Shown: one piece after another, positions 42,350 through 50,844 of the stretch | Numbering within the stretch: position 1 is the stretch's first letter | How the letters are laid out: every line of letters begins with the position of its first letter | Assembly (NCBI GenBank): GCA_963775505.1 | Contig: CAVZIL010000009.1 | Span: 43,987-107,986 of the forward strand | Length of the DNA stretch: 64,000 nucleotides | DNA from: an uncultured Actinomycetes bacterium | GTDB lineage: Bacteria; Actinomycetota; Thermoleophilia; Gaiellales; Gaiellaceae | Reading direction: 5' to 3' | Program-made: the position numbers and the translations under genes | The notes under the pieces: generated by a model | What the model was told of the DNA's origin: nothing | The model's input: only the letters and a program-made list of their open reading frames with translations | Databases searched by the model: none

Positions 42350-43479
42350 TGGCCGTCGAGAGCGACAGGGCACGTGAGGTCGGGCCCCGCGGTCCGCTCG
42401 GATCGCCGACCGAGGAGGGACGACGCTTCTCCACCGCGTCCCGCGCGCTTGCCGTCACCGCGCTGGCGCTCTTCCTCGCCACTCTCCTGAACGCTCAGAG
42501 CATCTACAAGTCCGTCTACAACCAGCCCGAGGGGACTCAGCGAGAGGTAGCCCTTGCATTCGCCGGGCCGTTGCGCGAGGTGAGCATGGCCCTGCGGCTC
42601 GACCGGCCGCGAGCGTGGGTCGAGAGCGCGATCGGGCGGGAGCACGCGACCATCGACACCGAGATCGTCCTACCGCCGCCTCCGCCCGCCGTCACGACCC
42701 CGGTTGAGGGGCCTGGTAGCGGGTCGTCGGCGCTGCCGACCGGGGAGAGGGCACCGGCCCCGGCGTCGCCTGCCGAGCCCGAGAAGGTCGCGTTCTCGCC
42801 CCAGAGGAAAATGCGTCTCTGGGTCGCGGGCGACTCACTCATCATTACGCCCGGCTACGCCGTCTACCGCGCCCTAGGGCGGAACGCGGCCGTGGAGAAG
42901 GTGGGGGACGTCGACGGCCGGGTGGCCACCGGTCTGACCCGGCCCGACGTCTTCAACTGGTTCCGCCACGTGACCGAGCAGGTCGAGAAGAGGACGATCC
43001 ACACCGTCGTCTTCTGCTTCGGGGGCAACGATGACCACGACCTGATGACCGGACTGCCGAAAGGAGTGTCGCTGGACGGGTTCGGGGGCCCAAAGTGGAC
43101 GAAGGAGTACCGTCGCCGCGTCGGCGGCCTGATGGACATCGTCAACCGGGCCGGCGGGTTCGTCGTGTGGCTCGGCCTGCCGGTCACCGACGACGCCGCC
43201 CAGTCGCGCCGCTGGCAGATCCTCAACCGCGCCGCGCTTGCGGAAGCGCAGCGGCGCCCGAACACGGTCGCCTACGTCGACATGTACGGACTGCTCTCCA
43301 GGGACGGCGAGTTCGCTTCGTATCTGCGAAACGAGGACGGCGAGCTCCTGAAGGTACGGGCGCCCGACGGCGTCCACCTCGAGCGGGCCGGAGGCGACAT
43401 CGTCGCCACGGAGGTCGCCCGCCGGGTGCGGGAGGTCTACGACCTCTCGAGCTGGCGCGATACGGCGGATGGAGGCTGA
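42349..43479 (+). CDS. DUF459 / SGNH-like partner of MBOAT (membrane-anchored)
   Basis: The ATG shares one base with the MBOAT stop (TGATG). N-terminal TM, Pro-rich linker, VAGDSL block I, GGND, and DGVHL block V. Confidence 0.75.
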   Translation: MAVESDRAREVGPRGPLGSPTEEGRRFSTASRALAVTALALFLATLLNAQSIYKSVYNQPEGTQREVALAFAGPLREVSMALRLDRPRAWVESAIGREHATIDTEIVLPPPPPAVTTPVEGPGSGSSALPTGERAPAPASPAEPEKVAFSPQRKMRLWVAGDSLIITPGYAVYRALGRNAAVEKVGDVDGRVATGLTRPDVFNWFRHVTEQVEKRTIHTVVFCFGGNDDHDLMTGLPKGVSLDGFGGPKWTKEYRRRVGGLMDIVNRAGGFVVWLGLPVTDDAAQSRRWQILNRAALAEAQRRPNTVAYVDMYGLLSRDGEFASYLRNEDGELLKVRAPDGVHLERAGGDIVATEVARRVREVYDLSSWRDTADGG

Positions 43480-43512
43480 TCGCGCCCGCCGGCCCCAGTT
43501 GCAAAGTGGGAC

Positions 43513-43540
43513 TTGCAACGACCGGCGGACGGCGGATAAT
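43513..43540 (+). promoter_or_regulatory. Candidate sigma-70-type promoter of the SIR2/STAND pair
   Basis: TTGCAA (43513-43518), a 16-nt spacer, then GATAAT (43535-43540), in a locally AT-richer gap. The -35 element lies in the right arm of inverted repeat GTTGCAA-n8-TTGCAAC (43498-43519). Confidence 0.4.
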
Positions 43541-43587
43541 GAACTGTTGGCGACACCACGCCCACGCCCGAGCAGAGGGGAGGCACA

Positions 43588-44547
43588 CTGCTCGACGAGC
43601 CGCTCCACGTCCACTACAACGCCGTTGTCAAAGGGATGTTCGAAGGGCGAGTCGTTCCCCTGCTCGGGGCCGGCGTCAATCTCTGCGGTCGTCCCGAGGG
43701 AATGGTCTGGAAGTACGGGGATCCCAACCACATGCCGAGCGGCGACGAGCTGGCCGACTTTCTGGCCGACTACTTCGAGTTTCCGTCGGCGGGCCGTCCC
43801 GACCTCGCACGCGTCTCGCAGTATGCAGCCGTGATCCAGGGCTCCGGGCCGCTCTACGAGGAGCTGCATCAGGTGTTCGACAAGGACTATCCGCCGACGG
43901 GCCTTCACGCCTTCCTCGCCGCGCTGCCGTCGGTTCAGCGCGAGCGCCTCCCCGCCGCGAAGTACCAGCTCATCGTCACGACGAACTACGACGATGCGCT
44001 GGAGCGGGCGTTCAAGGCTGCGGGTGAGCCCTACGACGTCGTCACCTACGACGCCGAGGGTGAGAATCGCGGCAAGTTCGTCCACTGGCCGCACGGCGGC
44101 GAGCCTCGGTTGATCGAGCGACCGAACGAGTACACGGACATTCCCCAGACCGAGCGGACCGTGATCCTCAAGATGCACGGAGCGATCGATCGCGCAGATC
44201 CGGACCGGGACAGCTTCGTCATCACGGAGGACCACTACATCGAGTACCTCGCGCGCTCGGACATCTCGAACCTCGTCCCCGTGACCATCGCGGCCCGACT
44301 CCGGCGAAGCGCGTTCCTCTTCCTCGGCTACCGCATGCGGGATTGGAACCTGCGGGTCATTCTGCATCGAATCTGGGGTGAGCAGCGCCTGAGCTACAAG
44401 TCGTGGGCGATTCAGCTGGAGCCCGAGGCGATCGAGCAGGAGTTCTGGAGCAAGCGCGGCGTCGACATCCTGCGCGTGAGCCTCGAGGACTACGTCGAGG
44501 GTCTCCGTGAAGCTGTCAAAGCTCCGTTGGGAGCGGGCGTCGGCTGA
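43588..44547 (+). CDS. SIR2_2-family (sirtuin-like, predicted NADase) protein
   Basis: LLGAGVN, TTNYDDALE, ILKMHGAID, FVITEDHYIEY and FLFLGYRMRDWNLR. CTG 43588 lies behind GAGGGGAGG; the conservative start is ATG 43636. The stop shares a base with the next gene's ATG. Confidence 0.8.
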   Translation: MLDEPLHVHYNAVVKGMFEGRVVPLLGAGVNLCGRPEGMVWKYGDPNHMPSGDELADFLADYFEFPSAGRPDLARVSQYAAVIQGSGPLYEELHQVFDKDYPPTGLHAFLAALPSVQRERLPAAKYQLIVTTNYDDALERAFKAAGEPYDVVTYDAEGENRGKFVHWPHGGEPRLIERPNEYTDIPQTERTVILKMHGAIDRADPDRDSFVITEDHYIEYLARSDISNLVPVTIAARLRRSAFLFLGYRMRDWNLRVILHRIWGEQRLSYKSWAIQLEPEAIEQEFWSKRGVDILRVSLEDYVEGLREAVKAPLGAGVG

Positions 44548-47500
44548 TGGCCACCGCCGCCTTGGCCAAGCCCACAGAGGCCGAGCGGGCCGCTCCGCTC
44601 GAGCCGTACAAGGGGCTGGCGCCATACCTCGAATCCGACTCCGATCTCTTCTTCGGCCGGGAGCGAGAAACGGAGATCATCTGCGCCAACTTGATGGCGG
44701 CCCGGTTGACGCTGCTCTACGGAGAGAGCGGCGTCGGGAAGAGCTCCGTCCTGCTTGCGGGAGCCGCCCACCAGCTGCGTGAGGAAGCGCGCCGGTACAG
44801 AGAGGAGCACGGACGCCCCGATTTTGCCGTGGTCGTCTACCGGACGTGGCGCGACAACCCGGTGGAAGGCCTCATCGCCGAGATTCGCCGGGCTGTGTCC
44901 GAGCTGATCGCGGACGACGACGCGGCCGAGAGCCTGGAGGGCGGCACCCTTGCCGACCTTCTCCGTGCCGCCGCCGATCGCCTGGACGGCGACGTTCTCG
45001 TCATTCTCGACCAGTTCGACGAGTACTTCCTCTACCACGGAACCGAAGACGGAGAGGACACGTTCGCCGTTCAGTTTCCGCAGGCGGTCAACGAGGGGGG
45101 CCTGCGCGCGAACTTCCTCGTCTCCATGCGCGAGGACACCGTCGCGAAGCTCGATCGCTTCAAAGGCCGTATCCCCTTCCTCTTCGACAACCGTCTTCGG
45201 ATCGACCACCTGGGCATCGGGGCAGCCCGTGAGGCGATCGAGCGCCCGATTGCCGCGTTCAACGAAAGGGCGAATCTGCCTGACAAGGTCGAGATCGAGC
45301 CGGCGCTGGTCGAGGAGATCCTGAGACAGATCGGCGGGCGGGATGTTGCGCTGACGCCGGCCGGAGCGGTCGAGGTGAGCAAGGCCCCGACGGCTTCGAA
45401 CGGAGATCGAGTCCAGGCCCCATACCTCCAGATCGTCCTGAGGCGGATCTGGCTCGAGGAGGTCAAGGAAGGATCGAGCGTGCTGCGCGCGGACACGCTC
45501 GAGCGTCTCGGCGGCGCCGAGAACATCGTCCGTACGCGGTTTGCCGAGGTGATGGGCTCGCTGACGCCGAGCGAGCGCGAAACGGCGGCCGATGTCTTTC
45601 GCTTCCTCGTCACCAGATCCGGCACGAAGGTCGCCCACTCGGCGGCCGACCTCGCCGATTTCACCGACCTCGACGAGGGCCAGGTCGCGGCCGTCCTCGC
45701 GCACATGGCCGATCAGGACATACGGCTGCTGCGCCCCGTTCAGCCGGCGTCCGGGGCCGAGGACGGGACGCGCTACGAGATCGCGCACGACATCATCGGG
45801 CCCGCGATCCTCGCGTGGCGTACGCACTACGAGCAGGAGAAGCGCCAGCACCGCGAACGACGGAAGACGCGCATTTGGGCGGGGACGGCGCTCGCCTCGT
45901 TGCTCCTGTGCGCCGGCGTAGCGCTTCTCGGGATCTGGGCCTGGCAGCAGAAGGAGGAGGCCGACGACGCGACCGTGCAGGCCGATGCGGCCGAGCTTGC
46001 CGCGCGAGCGCGGGCGGTCCGGAACGAAGATCCTGCCCGGGCCGTCGGACTTGCGCTCGAGGCGCTGGAAGCAAACGAGAAGAGCGGCCAAGCGGAGGAC
46101 GTCCTCCGCGAAGCTCTACCCGCGTTCCGCGCGCGCCGCATCATCAGCGATGTCGGGGATCCCGCGGCCGCTGCGATCAGCGGCTCTGCGGGGCGGCCGC
46201 TGCTAGCGCTTCCGACGGAGGATCAAGCCATGCGCATCGTCGACGCCGAGACCGGAGAGGACGCTTCGGTCCTTGCTGAGCCGGGCGACGTCTTCACCTC
46301 GTCGTTCAGCGCGGACGCGAGTCGGCTCGTCACGACACCCCTAGGCGGCACGGCCACCCTCTGGGACACCGAGAGCGGCAACGAGATCAGCCGCCTGCCT
46401 GGAGCCGACACGGTCTATGTAGTGGCGTTCGATCCGTCGGGGAACTCCATCGTCGGAACGGACCTCGACGGAGGACTGAATCTCTGGAACGGAGAATCGG
46501 GCGCGCAGCTCGACCAGAAGGACGCAACTTCCGAGGGCGGGGTCGTCTGGAGCCTGAGCTTCAGTGATGACGGAAGCCGACTCGCCACCGTGAGCTCGGA
46601 TACCACAGACAACGTCCGCCTGTGGTTCGTGTCGGCCACGGGCCTTCAGGAAAGCGGGAGGATTCCGACTGCCTTCGAAGGGCAGGAAGGGGCCGAGCGG
46701 GAAGCGGACGCGACGTCCGTCCCCTTCACGGCGGCTGCGCTCGACCCGGCGGGCACGCGCCTCGTGACTGCGGACGAGAATGGGCGGGTGCAAGTCTGGG
46801 ATGCAGCGACCCGCGCGCCGGAACGGATGCTTGCAGGAGCCGTGGGTGAGACGTCGGACCTCGCCTTCAGCCCAGACGGAAAGCTCGTCGCGGCCGCTCA
46901 GGACAAGGTCGTGCGCGTGTGGAGGGTTGCGACCGGGGAGCGTCTGGCAGAGATGCAGGGACACCAGGACTGGGTCAACGTGGTGGAGTTCCGGCCCGAC
47001 GGCGAGAACGTCCTGAGCGCCAGCTCGGACGGCACAGCGCGCGTGTGGGAGGCGCGGACCGGGCTTCCCGTTCTCGAGCTGAGGGGCCACCACGGGGCGA
47101 TCGTCATGGTGGACTACCTGGCGGGCGAGAAGCTGGCGGCGACGGTGAGCGAGGATGGAACGGTGCGGACCTGGGACGTCGAGACCGGGATCGAGCTGCG
47201 CGGCCATCGCGATTGGGTTCTAGACGCGACCTACAACTCGGACGGCACGCTCTTGGCGACGGTCGGCTCCGACGGGCGGCTGGTCACCTGGGACCCGATA
47301 ACCCACGAGCGCCAAGATGCAACGGAGGCGGGCCTCAGTTCGAGCGCGGTGAACACCGTCGAATTCAGCCCCGACGGGCGAATCCTGACCGGAGCGGACG
47401 ACGGGACCGCCGCCCTCTGGGATCCCGAGACCCTCGACTACGACTCACAGGTCTACCACGGGGACAGAGTCACCGGGGCGTCGTTCAACCCGGACGGCGA

Positions 47501-48152
47501 TCGCATCGTGACGTCGAGCACCGACGGGACAGTCCGCGTCTGGGATCCTGCAGAGCCGGACGAGCAGCTCTTCGACCTGCAGGCGGCCGGCCTGGAGCAG
47601 ACGACTCACGACGGTCCCGTGCTCGACGCCCGCTTCAGCCCTGACGGGACTCGGATCGTGACCGTCGGCGCCGACGAGCTGGCCCGCGTGTGGTCGAGTG
47701 ATGGTCGCGAGCTCGGGAAGTTCGAAGGTCACGACGGAATCGTGTGGCGGGTTTCCTTCAATCCCGACGATCCAGAGCTGGTCGTGACCGGCAGCCGGGA
47801 CCGGACGGCCCGAATCTGGAACACCGAGGATCCGAGCGAGCAGATCGCGAAGATCGAGCAGCCGGAGGCCGTGACAAGCGTCGCGTTCAGCCCCGACGGA
47901 GAGCTGGTCGTCACCGGCAGCCCAGGGGGCGTGACCCGGGTCTGGGACTGGAGACCCGTGAAGCTCCTGGCTGTAATGCGCATGCACGGCGACTACATCA
48001 ACTCCGCTGAGTTCAGCCCTGACCAGAGGCTCATCGTTACGGCGAGCGACGACCGCACGCTGAAGCTCTATCCCTGTGAGGTCTGCGCGGGGCTCGAGAC
48101 GCTCGAGCGCATGGCGCGAGAACAGACCGCTGCCTTGCGCCCGGCCCCCTAG
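44547..48152 (+). CDS. nSTAND-type P-loop NTPase - single TM helix - WD40 repeat protein (1201 aa)
   Basis: PYKGLAPYLESDSDLFFGRERE leader, Walker A GESGVGKSS, and Walker B LVILDQFDE. The TM helix IWAGTALASLLLCAGVALLGIWAW (nt 45873-45944) has RERRKTR before it and QQKEEADD after. About 14 WD40-like blades follow (VRVWD, ARVWE, ARIWN, TRVWD) and a CEVC tail. Confidence 0.85.
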   Translation: MATAALAKPTEAERAAPLEPYKGLAPYLESDSDLFFGRERETEIICANLMAARLTLLYGESGVGKSSVLLAGAAHQLREEARRYREEHGRPDFAVVVYRTWRDNPVEGLIAEIRRAVSELIADDDAAESLEGGTLADLLRAAADRLDGDVLVILDQFDEYFLYHGTEDGEDTFAVQFPQAVNEGGLRANFLVSMREDTVAKLDRFKGRIPFLFDNRLRIDHLGIGAAREAIERPIAAFNERANLPDKVEIEPALVEEILRQIGGRDVALTPAGAVEVSKAPTASNGDRVQAPYLQIVLRRIWLEEVKEGSSVLRADTLERLGGAENIVRTRFAEVMGSLTPSERETAADVFRFLVTRSGTKVAHSAADLADFTDLDEGQVAAVLAHMADQDIRLLRPVQPASGAEDGTRYEIAHDIIGPAILAWRTHYEQEKRQHRERRKTRIWAGTALASLLLCAGVALLGIWAWQQKEEADDATVQADAAELAARARAVRNEDPARAVGLALEALEANEKSGQAEDVLREALPAFRARRIISDVGDPAAAAISGSAGRPLLALPTEDQAMRIVDAETGEDASVLAEPGDVFTSSFSADASRLVTTPLGGTATLWDTESGNEISRLPGADTVYVVAFDPSGNSIVGTDLDGGLNLWNGESGAQLDQKDATSEGGVVWSLSFSDDGSRLATVSSDTTDNVRLWFVSATGLQESGRIPTAFEGQEGAEREADATSVPFTAAALDPAGTRLVTADENGRVQVWDAATRAPERMLAGAVGETSDLAFSPDGKLVAAAQDKVVRVWRVATGERLAEMQGHQDWVNVVEFRPDGENVLSASSDGTARVWEARTGLPVLELRGHHGAIVMVDYLAGEKLAATVSEDGTVRTWDVETGIELRGHRDWVLDATYNSDGTLLATVGSDGRLVTWDPITHERQDATEAGLSSSAVNTVEFSPDGRILTGADDGTAALWDPETLDYDSQVYHGDRVTGASFNPDGDRIVTSSTDGTVRVWDPAEPDEQLFDLQAAGLEQTTHDGPVLDARFSPDGTRIVTVGADELARVWSSDGRELGKFEGHDGIVWRVSFNPDDPELVVTGSRDRTARIWNTEDPSEQIAKIEQPEAVTSVAFSPDGELVVTGSPGGVTRVWDWRPVKLLAVMRMHGDYINSAEFSPDQRLIVTASDDRTLKLYPCEVCAGLETLERMAREQTAALRPAP

Positions 48153-48844
48153 GCCTTGTCGATCGCCTTCTGAAACCGGACTCCTTCCTCGTCGAGCGTC
48201 GTGATCAGCTCGACGAGGTTGTGCTGGAGCTCGCGGAGGCGCGGGCTCGGCTCGTCCGCCACGGCGTCGACGTCGCGGCGAAGCGACTCGAACCACCGCT
48301 CGAACGCCGAATCGGCGCTCTTCTCGACGAAGGTCGCGTAGCCCAGGCAGAGCCGCTCCCCGTCTTCGACCACGATCATCCGCTCGCCGATCGCGTTTTG
48401 CTCGCCGCGCCAGATCATGAACGGCCGGCCAAGCTCCGCGCGATCGGACGCGAACGTCTCACGGACGTCGTGGAGGAGCATCGACACGCGCCGAGTCGAC
48501 GCTTCCTCCTGGAACCGGAGGAACTGCACCTCTCTGCGAAGGATCTCGGTCCACGCGAAGTACTGCCCGATGAGGTAGAGCGTGTGGTCGACGGCGTACT
48601 GGCGACTGCCCTCCCGGTCGGTCGCGTAGTACTTCCCCAGGAAGTCCTGCCGCAGGATGTTGTAGAGGCGTGACTGCAGGTCGTAGGCGGCGAGGATGAG
48701 CGGCTCGCGGTACTTCGCGAGGATCTCGCTTGCCTTCTGCTCCTTCTCCGTGCGGGCAAGCTGGATCTGTCCGTACAGCGACAGACTCGCGCTCAGCATG
48801 GCACCGAGGAGCGCGATGATCGCGACGATGATCGCCGCATCCAT
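48149..48844 (-). CDS. Membrane-anchored hypothetical protein
   Basis: N-terminal TM (MDAAIIVAIIALLGAMLSASLSLYG) followed by a roughly 200-aa soluble helical domain with no motif I recognise. The start may be 48844, 48853 or 48880. The stop overlaps the STAND stop in the palindrome CTAG. Confidence 0.55.
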   Translation of the reverse strand: MDAAIIVAIIALLGAMLSASLSLYGQIQLARTEKEQKASEILAKYREPLILAAYDLQSRLYNILRQDFLGKYYATDREGSRQYAVDHTLYLIGQYFAWTEILRREVQFLRFQEEASTRRVSMLLHDVRETFASDRAELGRPFMIWRGEQNAIGERMIVVEDGERLCLGYATFVEKSADSAFERWFESLRRDVDAVADEPSPRLRELQHNLVELITTLDEEGVRFQKAIDKA

Positions 48845-48939
48845 CGGAGCCATCATCCCAGGAGACCTCGCCCCAGGCAACGCCCCGACAACTCGCCGTC
48901 GGCGAGGGACCGCCCGAGGCGGTGTGCATAGTCCCGGGG

Positions 48940-50844
48940 ATGCGCGTCGTCGCCCTCATCGCCGCCCTCGCCTCGGCGCTCGCCCTTCCCGGTCTCGCCG
49001 GCGCCCAGGCGGAGGAGGAGCTGGCCGAGCGGTACGCGCCCGTCGTTCGGCTCGTGGAGCAGGATGAGGAGTGCGGGCCAGGCGAGCCCTACGACCCGAT
49101 CGACATCGACGCGATCCTCGATGAGGACACGGTCTCGCTGCGAGGCCCGTGGCGCAGCAACGACCTCGTCACGATCGCTCCGTCTGCCGACGATCTCGGC
49201 CGCGGGCTCTACGAGTACAACCTTGACTTTCCCGGCGACGCCCTGAACCCGGGCTGCGACTACGAGCGCTGGGCTCGACGCATCAGCGAGGGCACCGAGC
49301 CGACCGTCTACGCCCACGTCGCGCTGGAGGCAGCCCATCCCGGCAGGCTCGGGCTCCAGTACTGGTTCTACTACCCGTTCAACGACTGGAACAACCTGCA
49401 CGAGGGCGACTGGGAGATGATCCAGATCGTCTTCCCGGCGGGGAGCGCCGAGGACGCCCTCGAGACGGAGCCGCTCGAGGTCGGCTACAGCCAGCACGAG
49501 GGCGCCGAGCGAGCCGAGTGGGGGGAGGAAAAGCTCGAGCTCGTCGACGGCAGCCACCCGGTCGTCTACCCGGCAGCGGGCTCGCACGCGAACTTCTACT
49601 CCGAGGGCCTCCACCTCGGGCGCTCGGGCGAGCAGGGAGTCGGCTGCGACGACACTACCGGCCCGCACGAGGAGCTTCGGCCGGCCACGCTGACGATCCC
49701 GAGCGACCCCTCGGCGGCGCAGGCTGCCTTCCCGTGGATCGCCTTCGAGGGTCGCTGGGGCGAGCGCCAGCAGGCGTTCTACAACGGTCCCACCGGGCCG
49801 AATCTGAAGACGCAGTGGGCTGAGCCGGTCACCTGGGCGGAGGACTGGCGCGACCGCAGCTACGCCGTGCCGGCGGGCGGCGCCTTCGGAACCGACGCGA
49901 CGGACTTCTTCTGCAGCGCGGTCGAGGCCGGGTCGAACTTCGTCGTCCGCGCGGTGGACAACGGCGTCCGGCTCGCGCTCGTGCTCGGCGTCCTCGCCGC
50001 CGCGCTGATCTTCCTGGTGACCCGGACTTCGTGGCGGCCGTCCACGCCGCTCAGCGCACGCCGCCGACGCTCGTGGGGCCAGACCTTCACGGCCTCGTGG
50101 CGCCTCTACCGGCTGCGCCCGAAGCTCTTCCTCGGGATCGGGCTCGTCGTCATCCCGATCTCGGTCGTCATCACCGGGCTCCAGATCCTGCTCTTCTCGG
50201 CGACCTCGCTCGTCGGGATCGACCCCGACGGGGAGGGCGGCGGCTTCCGAGTCGGCCTCGGCGTGTGGCTCGGGACGGTGCTGACGCTCCTCGCCCTCGC
50301 CCTCGTCCAGGCCGCGTGCGCCCGGGCGATCGCCGAGATCGACGCCGGAAAGGAGATCGGCGTCCGCGAGGCGTACCGCCTCGCGTTCGACAGCGTCTGG
50401 GAGCTGCTCCGCGCGTTGGCGGTCGCCGTCGCGGTCGTCACCGTGCTCAGCGTCTCGATCTTCCTCCTGCCGATCGCGATCTGGCTCGCCGTCCGCTGGG
50501 CGCTGATCGTCCCCGTCGTCGAGCTCGAGGAGCACGGCGGACTCGCCGCGCTGCGCCGGAGCGGATGTCTCGTCCGCCTGCAGTGGCTCAAGGTCGGCAC
50601 CCTCGTCGTCGCCGCGGCGGCGCTGGCGATCGTGATGGGGCCGTTCCTCGGCGCGCTCCTGATCCTCCTCGTTGACGCTCCGTTCGGGCTCGTCAACGTC
50701 CTGGCCGGCCTGATCTACGCGGTGGCGATGCCGTTCGTCGGCATCGCGACGACGTACGTCTACTACGACACGCTCGTCCGCGAGCGCATTGACGAGGCCG
50801 AGCCGCCGCCGACGGTGCTGCCGGCGGAGATCCCGACGTCGTAA
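48940..50844 (+). CDS. Exported Vps62/DUF946-like domain fused to a polytopic membrane domain
   Basis: Signal peptide MRVVALIAALASALALPGLAGAQA. The YAPVVRL...YWFYYPFNDWNNLHEGDWEMIQIVF...GSHANFY pattern resembles Vps62-like proteins. The C-terminal 250 aa or so have several hydrophobic helices. Confidence 0.6.
   Translation: MRVVALIAALASALALPGLAGAQAEEELAERYAPVVRLVEQDEECGPGEPYDPIDIDAILDEDTVSLRGPWRSNDLVTIAPSADDLGRGLYEYNLDFPGDALNPGCDYERWARRISEGTEPTVYAHVALEAAHPGRLGLQYWFYYPFNDWNNLHEGDWEMIQIVFPAGSAEDALETEPLEVGYSQHEGAERAEWGEEKLELVDGSHPVVYPAAGSHANFYSEGLHLGRSGEQGVGCDDTTGPHEELRPATLTIPSDPSAAQAAFPWIAFEGRWGERQQAFYNGPTGPNLKTQWAEPVTWAEDWRDRSYAVPAGGAFGTDATDFFCSAVEAGSNFVVRAVDNGVRLALVLGVLAAALIFLVTRTSWRPSTPLSARRRRSWGQTFTASWRLYRLRPKLFLGIGLVVIPISVVITGLQILLFSATSLVGIDPDGEGGGFRVGLGVWLGTVLTLLALALVQAACARAIAEIDAGKEIGVREAYRLAFDSVWELLRALAVAVAVVTVLSVSIFLLPIAIWLAVRWALIVPVVELEEHGGLAALRRSGCLVRLQWLKVGTLVVAAAALAIVMGPFLGALLILLVDAPFGLVNVLAGLIYAVAMPFVGIATTYVYYDTLVRERIDEAEPPPTVLPAEIPTS

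Follow-up and report, generated by a model that had tools for sequence, protein, structure and literature searches.

A predicted membrane-spanning helix between the nSTAND1 NTPase and the WD40 region of a SIR2-paired STAND protein from an uncultured Actinomycetes bacterium

The DNA analyzed here, referred to below as the window, is a stretch of 64,000 nucleotides from an uncultured Actinomycetes bacterium (assembly GCA_963775505.1, contig CAVZIL010000009.1, positions 43,987 to 107,986 of the forward strand). It contains a plus-strand gene pair that would encode a receptor-like, membrane-spanning STAND (NLR-type) switch together with a separate SIR2 effector. The upstream gene (window positions 43636 to 44547, with its ATG at 43636) encodes a SIR2_2-family protein of 303 amino acids (PF13289; E value, 3.7e-26), which is predicted to be a cytoplasmic NADase effector. 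Its stop codon overlaps the start codon of the second gene (ATGA). This second gene, a single open frame at positions 44547 to 48152, encodes a protein of 1201 amino acids in which an nSTAND1 NTPase module, a single predicted transmembrane (TM) helix, and a WD40 region follow one another. In the reading that we favor, and to which we assign a probability of roughly 60%, the WD40 region is a sensor on the outside of the membrane, the STAND module is the switch, SIR2 provides an NADase output, and the pair works as a conflict system.

The helix is encoded at positions 45873 to 45944, which translate to IWAGTALASLLLCAGVALLGIWAW, residues 443 to 466 of the protein. These 24 apolar residues are preceded by the basic juxtamembrane stretch RQHRERRKTR (residues 433 to 442; positions 45843 to 45872), a positive-inside determinant, and are followed by QQKEEADDA. 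The original prediction, made from the DNA letters and their translation, had described a 24-residue apolar stretch with the same two flanks at these residues and coordinates, and both the translation and a hydropathy scan confirm it. The Kyte-Doolittle mean over 19 residues is 2.12, and no other segment of the protein reaches 1.6 (the runner-up is at 1.02). The summed Hessa insertion energy is -0.87 kcal/mol, the only negative value in the protein (runner-up, +7.5). The 15-residue flanks contain seven Lys and Arg residues on the N-terminal side and one on the C-terminal side. In an AlphaFold2 (AF2) model of residues 1 to 620, built from a 60-sequence alignment (predicted local distance difference test [pLDDT], 88.7), one unbroken helix of 77 residues (414 to 490; pLDDT, 82 to 95) runs through the basic stretch, the apolar core, and the acidic continuation and is not packed against the NTPase. 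Cys455, in the middle of the helix (45909 to 45911), is common to many of the closest homologues (LLCAGVA, LACAGVA, AACAAVA, and LGCLVLV, among others) and is lost in more distant ones. Because a hydrophobic run alone is weak evidence, the case for the helix rests on its conservation among relatives and not on the single sequence.

When residues 1 to 520 were used as the query and 8000 candidates were scored, 1247 relatives were found. A hydrophobic 19-mer with a mean of at least 1.6, the criterion for a helix, was present at residues ~420 to 490, directly behind the NTPase, in all 120 close homologues listed (44 to 67% identity, the range also seen for full-length homologues). An exhaustive phmmer search against 1.84 billion cluster representatives gave 24,597 matches at E values of ≤1e-3 and 2,613 clusters (50% identity) at ≤1e-30, and the helix was found in 116 of 120 further 50%-identity cluster representatives, where it lies 24 to 98 residues (median, 44) behind the invariant YEIxHD motif. 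It was also above the threshold in 75 of 80 genomic loci, which span Chloroflexota, Actinomycetota, Acidobacteriota, Cyanobacteriota, Pseudomonadota, Thermodesulfobacteriota, Verrucomicrobiota, and Rokubacteria, and in 15 of 15 distant paralogues. Overall, a helix occupies the same position in ~97% of more than 300 relatives (25 to 67% identity, many phyla). The sequence of the helix is not conserved. What is kept is its hydrophobicity, its length (19 to 31 residues; median, 22), its uniformly apolar, nonamphipathic character, and the preceding Arg/Lys cluster, and Trp or another aromatic residue is frequent at its C-terminal end. Behind it, the linker motif A472...DP...S..LA..A is conserved, and a polar, Arg/Ala-rich helical segment (QR..A...) is present even in distant kinase-fused paralogues. 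Residues 443 to 466 are therefore very probably a membrane span.

Some loci near the threshold were considered as losses of the helix and not counted: a Gly/Ser/Trp-rich apolar segment of 21 residues falls just under the threshold in L062 and in L025, the homologue from the proteobacterium Thauera aminoaromatica S2, and a Gly/Ser/Trp-rich segment of the same length falls just above it in L030 and L032. Locus L076 was rejected as a genuine short form due to its broken frame. In this uncultured Actinomycetes metagenome-assembled genome (CAVQDQ010000003.1; 5980 to 9358), the STAND frame stops 29 residues past the helix, and tblastn similarity to the WD40 part goes on downstream, as expected if the copy is frameshifted or interrupted or if the assembly is wrong here.

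The charge distribution points to the orientation. Among the 120 homologues, the 15-residue flanks contain on average 6.3 Lys and Arg residues on the N-terminal side and 2.96 on the C-terminal side, and the N-terminal side is the richer one in 114. The window protein likewise has the sequence features of a bitopic type II protein, with one span of 24 apolar residues and more Lys/Arg on the N-terminal flank. Given insertion, an N-in/C-out topology is close to forced. WD40 tails always stand behind exactly one helix and never behind a two-helix hairpin. A second helix that would return the WD40 part to the cytoplasm was considered and rejected, as the extra "helices" in long proteins sit hundreds of residues downstream, inside the propellers. 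On these sequence features, the WD40 sensor is probably outside and the SIR2 partner inside.

An independent argument for the orientation comes from distant paralogues (25 to 31% identity), which were found in the search of genomes of the same class and have no SIR2 neighbor. Six of these, giant paralogues (L117 to L122, from genomes G145, G154, G055, G109, G133, and G061), lack a SIR2 neighbor without exception, and Pfam scans were made for L117, L118, L119, and L121. L117 and L119 have the architecture Pkinase-nSTAND1-TM-WD40 (about 1550 to 1600 amino acids), L121 is Pkinase-nSTAND1-TM (1005 amino acids, with no WD40 match), and L118 is OmpR/BTAD-AAA_16-nSTAND1-TM-WD40 (1680 amino acids). 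L120 and L122 start with kinase-like N termini. Kinase and DNA-binding modules, which must be cytoplasmic, lie on the N-terminal side of the helix, and that side is therefore probably cytoplasmic. In the distant paralogues, the helix has the same relative position and a similar charge asymmetry (6.3 Lys and Arg on the N-terminal side and 3.6 on the C-terminal side, with an N-terminal bias in 13 of 15). Since paralogues without SIR2 share the helix, its position, and its charge asymmetry, the helix is ancestral to nSTAND1. It is not tied to the SIR2 partner, a correlation that the original prediction had raised, for kinase-fused and SARP-fused (OmpR/BTAD) paralogues carry it as well. Nor is it an insertion in this protein, as had been proposed; it is a near-universal nSTAND1 trait that is listed in the supplement of Kaur et al. 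(2021). The four paralogues scanned match Pfam nSTAND1 at about 420 to 430 bits, compared to 153 bits for the window protein, and by this measure the SIR2-paired clade appears to be a divergent branch of nSTAND1.

The NTPase module itself (residues 20 to 426; positions 44604 to 45824) is assigned to nSTAND1 by its match to PF20703 (E value, 2.7e-44; 152.8 bits, against a curated cutoff of 27.1), which covers profile positions 1 to 346 of 379, and its P-loop and the acidic residue of Walker B are intact. Walker A is GESGVGKSS (residues 59 to 67) and Walker B is ILDQFDE (residues 153 to 159), and G62, G64, K65, S67, D155, and Q156 are invariant in alignments of 50 to 60 homologues. In the AF2 model, the pLDDT of the module is mostly above 90, and Foldseek ranks the Apaf-1 apoptosome and ORC/Cdc6 highest, a result in line with a STAND NTPase.

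Behind the helix, a helical linker (residues 467 to 526; positions 45945 to 46124) continues the long helix and adds two short ones. The AF2 model of the tail (pLDDT, 94.3; predicted template modeling score, 0.90) has three juxtamembrane helices (H2-25, H30-43, and H48-60; pLDDT, >90), then strands at residues 529 to 1175, and a terminal helix. This region (residues ~529 to 1175; positions 46131 to 48071) matches Pfam WD40 with an E value of 3.8e-89 and nine scored repeats, the listed matches lying between residues ~580 and 1180. The model contains about 60 strands and therefore about 15 WD40 blades, probably arranged as two beta-propellers, and it is this part that is predicted to be the extracytoplasmic sensor. 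Directly ahead of the last helix is a CxxC motif (Cys1177 and Cys1180; positions 48075 to 48086), both Cys of which have a conservation of at least 90% among 41 WD40-tailed relatives. Along with Cys46 and Cys455, these are all the cysteines of the protein. If the tail is indeed exported, the CxxC might form a disulfide or bind a metal.

The tails behind the helix are swappable. About two-thirds are WD40. The others, among them TPR, polytopic domains of five to eight helices, and very short tails, sort into at least 38 unrelated groups. Domains identified in such tails by Pfam are CAP (P0134; E value, 2e-16), bacterial SH3_3 (P0072; 3e-11), PD40 and DPPIV_N (P0161; 1e-21), RHS repeats (P0197; 3e-13), dCache_1 (P0210; 1e-8, below Pfam's cutoff), the Ig-like ASH/DUF1573 (P0236; 2e-14), Peptidase_C39_2 (P0077; 3e-13), and FGE-sulfatase (P0145; 6e-26). 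Most of these (CAP, SH3_3, PD40, RHS, dCache, and Ig-like) are typically extracytoplasmic in bacteria. The helix-less relative P0241 has a tail of cytoplasmic type, Peptidase_M17_N and CHAT.

The SIR2 partner is a constant companion in this clade: in 78 of 80 loci from at least 8 phyla, the STAND start coincides with the end of a SIR2 homologue on the same strand. These 78 homologues were matched with E values of 1e-18 or better, the weakest matches being contig-truncated copies. In the SIR2 protein of the window, Asn117 is present within VTTNYD, and His181 aligns to the catalytic residues His146 of KomC and His171 of DSR2, the residues replaced in the deposited KomC(H146N) and DSR2(H171A) structures. 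The SIR2_2 domain thus has the catalytic Asn (TTNYD) and His (hKhHG) of defense-type SIR2 proteins. The closest solved relatives by sequence are KomC, DSR2, and a 278-amino-acid chain deposited as an NAD-dependent deacetylase, and not housekeeping sirtuins. PADLOC matched the protein to ThsA, Dsr2, and PDC-S25-type SIR2. The partner is therefore predicted to be an NAD-cleaving effector. Among 77 SIR2 partners (loci L007 to L086), 75% retain the catalytic Asn and 81% the catalytic His. The sole PADLOC match of the STAND protein is a HEAT-ARM candidate, via its WD40 part. A known defense system was also sought with NCBIfam, and the matches were limited to generic propeller or Dsr2 fragments. A SIR2 gene adjoining nSTAND1+TM was not found in the excerpts of the Kaur et al. 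(2021) supplement or in PADLOC 2.0.0, and the pairing seems to be undescribed.

The mechanism that we propose is as follows. The nSTAND1 NTPase (residues 1 to 442) would be cytoplasmic, and residues 443 to 466 would act as a type II signal anchor. The Arg/Lys cluster would stay inside, and the parts behind the anchor, namely the helical linker and the two propellers with their roughly 15 WD40 blades, would be exported to the extracytoplasmic side. (i) On the outside, the propellers would bind a ligand, which might be a phage particle or ejection protein during adsorption, a product of envelope damage, or a molecule that another cell secretes or displays on its surface. (ii) The signal would travel along the continuous 77-residue helix and (iii) license the NTPase to oligomerize, in a nucleotide-dependent manner, on the inner side of the membrane. 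(iv) The oligomer would activate the cotranslated SIR2, NAD+ would be cleaved, and the cell would be arrested or killed. Throughout this scheme, we infer the membrane insertion, the orientation, the ligand, the activation of SIR2, and the immune role.

The surroundings of the pair bear on that role. On the minus strand, a convergent gene (positions 48149 to 48880) encodes 243 amino acids with an N-terminal hydrophobic helix. It had no Pfam match and was assigned by PADLOC to RTasTM (DRT-associated TM protein; E value, 4.2e-7). Homologues of this RTasTM-like gene adjoin seven other SIR2-STAND loci (L013, L027, L035, L040, L043, L055, and L075), upstream or downstream of the pair and on either strand, and among the genes flanking the pair in the window, no other recurs as a conserved third gene. 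Its product could be an accessory component, or the gene could be a defense gene that travels with the pair. The G+C content is 0.65 to 0.69 across positions 43000 to 49500, which hold the SIR2, STAND, and RTasTM-like genes, compared to about 0.70 to 0.745 in most of the flanks, a dip that fits a horizontally acquired patch. Strong matches were found in 11 of 201 genomes of the same class, and the STAND gene was not found in the one other genome of the same genus searched. The patchy distribution, the hypervariable tails, the G+C dip, the SIR2_2 effector, and the RTasTM-like gene all fit a conflict system.

Several observations weigh against the favored reading, and they are given here with the alternatives to which they lend support. 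The first alternative keeps the topology and dispenses with immunity: the pair would be an outside-in signaling receptor, like the actinobacterial receptor Ser/Thr kinases, in which the STAND switch regulates a sirtuin-type deacylase, an ADP-ribosyltransferase, or NAD metabolism upon an envelope or environmental cue. We regard this as rather unlikely, but it has several points in its favor. In paralogues from the same class, the nSTAND1-TM-WD40 chassis is joined either to a Ser/Thr kinase or to an OmpR/BTAD transcription activator, both of which are regulatory and not suicidal outputs. No classical defense island surrounds the pair within the 64-kb window, and the neighbors are housekeeping genes; those upstream we take to be envelope O-acylation genes, following the annotation in the original prediction. 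No Avs or other STAND model of PADLOC 2.0.0 matched the STAND part, either as the whole protein or as residues 1 to 520. Finally, catalytic Asn or His is missing in about 20 to 25% of the SIR2 partners, and a minority of the SIR2 copies are therefore probably inactive. Against a purely regulatory role stand the similarity of the SIR2_2 partner to the defense-type KomC and DSR2, the patchiness among close relatives, the extreme variety of tails, the G+C dip, and the recurring RTasTM-like gene.

In the second alternative, the topology itself is different: the helix merely tethers the protein or self-associates, in the cytoplasmic leaflet or buried in an oligomer, and the WD40 part stays in the cytoplasm as in Apaf-1 and Avs. 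Membrane insertion and orientation are, after all, read from sequence statistics. Classical WD40 and STAND sensors are cytoplasmic, and we know of no G-beta-type WD40 propeller that has been experimentally documented outside the cytoplasm in bacteria. The window protein is rich in Ala, Leu, and Val (the G+C content of the window is 71%), and because shuffling its residues gives an equally high hydropathy peak in 10% of the trials and a 24-residue run without D, E, K, R, H, N, or Q in 2.3%, the single sequence is only modestly significant. The helix is truly missing in four relatives (L014, L050, L085, and P0241), and the three of these with genomic context (L014, L050, and L085) keep SIR2. L014 and L050 also keep WD40 tails, with a charged coiled segment in place of the helix, so this type of sensor can work in the cytoplasm. 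The original prediction had treated homologues that retain SIR2 without the helix as evidence against it; such homologues exist, in these three loci, and elsewhere the helix is nearly universal. The helix-less relatives are scattered as single rows among helix-bearing neighbors, which suggests separate losses of the helix, in a tree with weak deep support that is unrooted because the motif filter dropped the kinase-type outgroups. An FHA domain, which is normally cytoplasmic, lies behind the helix in P0037; a 2026 preprint places FHA among newly recognized immune sensor domains.

What makes a cytoplasmic WD40 part improbable, in our view, is the nature of the segment and of what follows it. 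The segment is apolar on all sides and too short for a reentrant hairpin, and an Arg/Lys-rich N-terminal flank with a frequent C-terminal aromatic residue is characteristic of a signal anchor. In relatives, domains of extracytoplasmic type lie behind it, its position may be taken by polytopic variants of five to eight helices, and AF2 leaves the helix unpacked from the NTPase. A third alternative, that the helix is a latent effector, shielded at rest, which the STAND oligomer would insert as a membrane-perforating bundle once activation has uncovered it, with SIR2 as a second effector, is very improbable: membrane-perforating TM effectors such as SLATT are common in conflict systems (PMC7159879) and P0193, L083, P0222, and P0235 end soon after one to three helices, but the helix lies between two large folded parts and not at a terminus, so hydrophobic a segment would be captured cotranslationally by the signal recognition particle, AF2 shows it exposed and not shielded, and some of the short forms reflect gene breakage or truncation (L076 goes on in a different frame).

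If the favored reading, with the WD40 part outside, is correct, the pair would be a true transmembrane NLR, for which we know of no experimentally characterized counterpart in any domain of life. To our knowledge, all characterized STAND/NLR immune sensors (Avs, bacterial NACHT [bNACHT], and those of plants and animals) read cytoplasmic signals. An NLR-type switch would then serve as a bacterial transmembrane receptor, acting before or during genome entry and coupled to NAD+ depletion, and the size of the family makes the question of topology one that covers thousands of genes. We suggest only tentatively that pairs of SIR2 with an nSTAND1-TM-sensor protein form a widespread, unnamed class of innate immune receptors, in which an extracytoplasmic threat leads to a STAND oligomer and on to NAD+ destruction.

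Among known systems, the Apaf-1 apoptosome resembles the window protein in that a NOD-type NTPase precedes tandem WD40 propellers, with 7 and 8 blades compared to about 15 here. However, Apaf-1 is a soluble protein with a CARD at its N terminus, and no membrane helix separates its NOD from its propellers. Avs/AVAST systems, especially the SIR2-STAND fusion Avs5, and bNACHT proteins share the STAND module, the C-terminal repeat sensor, and the patchy distribution, and SIR2 as an NAD+-depleting output may be common to Avs5 and the window pair by analogy. Avs and bNACHT proteins are soluble, with effector and NTPase in one chain, and they recognize phage proteins inside the cytoplasm, whereas here a membrane helix is predicted between NTPase and sensor and the effector is encoded in trans. 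The window protein is accordingly not of the Avs type, in which the effector is fused N-terminally to STAND in one soluble chain. WD40 is named among the sensor types in PMC12803255, with membranes unmentioned. Some of the STAND proteins of Thiohalocapsa that are diversified by diversity-generating retroelements (DGRs) are predicted to have a periplasmic sensor domain (Dore et al., PNAS 2024; PMC10907252). Those targets are NACHT or nSTAND1 proteins with retroelement-diversified C-type-lectin/FGE sensors, and the window protein has neither a DGR nor an FGE domain.

Two receptor families offer closer parallels in layout. Mycobacterial receptor Ser/Thr kinases combine an intracellular kinase with an extracellular beta-propeller (PMC1847690). 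Mycobacterium tuberculosis PknD is similar to the window protein in its bitopic N-in/C-out layout, its cytoplasmic signaling domain, and its extracellular beta-propeller sensor but differs in its phosphorylation output and in lacking a STAND switch and SIR2. Its propeller is reportedly of the NHL type. The receptor-like, type II single-TM ParA immune NTPases (PCTM and the receptor-like subtype of TIR-ParA; bioRxiv 10.64898/2026.10.19.760177) share a cytoplasmic NTPase, a TM helix, a variable extracellular sensor (SH3, Ig-like, TPR, and others), and an effector gene immediately upstream. Their NTPase is a SIMIBI ParA, whereas that of the window protein is an AAA+-like STAND, and their effectors are SLATT, caspase, TIR, and CPPC-4h, compared to SIR2 here.

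The closest counterparts are the nSTAND1 conflict systems of Kaur et al. (eLife 2020 and 2021), which have the same PF20703 NTPase and the same order of parts. The main texts of the two studies (PMC7159879 and PMC8195603) contain no statement on the side that the nSTAND1 sensor faces, and the literature main texts gave neither an explicit nSTAND1 sensor topology nor a pair of SIR2 with nSTAND1-TM. Kaur et al. (2020; PMC7159879) described the EACC1 pair as a membrane-associated two-gene system working near the membrane, and the 2021 supplement includes an example in which EACC1 is followed by CASPASE+nSTAND1+TM+BetaPropeller. The window pair is not such a system: it has no 5' EACC1 gene and no N-terminal caspase or cNMP cyclase, the protein opens directly with nSTAND1 at residue 20, and the upstream gene encodes SIR2_2 and not the small single-TM EACC1. 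In the nSTAND1 systems, the effector is a fused caspase, TIR, or EAD, whereas here it is a separate upstream SIR2 gene. Supplement file 1 of Kaur et al. (2021; PMC8195603), the study that names nSTAND1, contains "nSTAND1+TM" 412 times and "nSTAND1+TM+BetaPropeller" 278 times, and the window protein has this latter architecture, with the helix after the NTPase/winged-helix module and then the beta-propeller. The architecture is thus already cataloged in print, and the pairing with SIR2 is the only feature that this copy adds to it.

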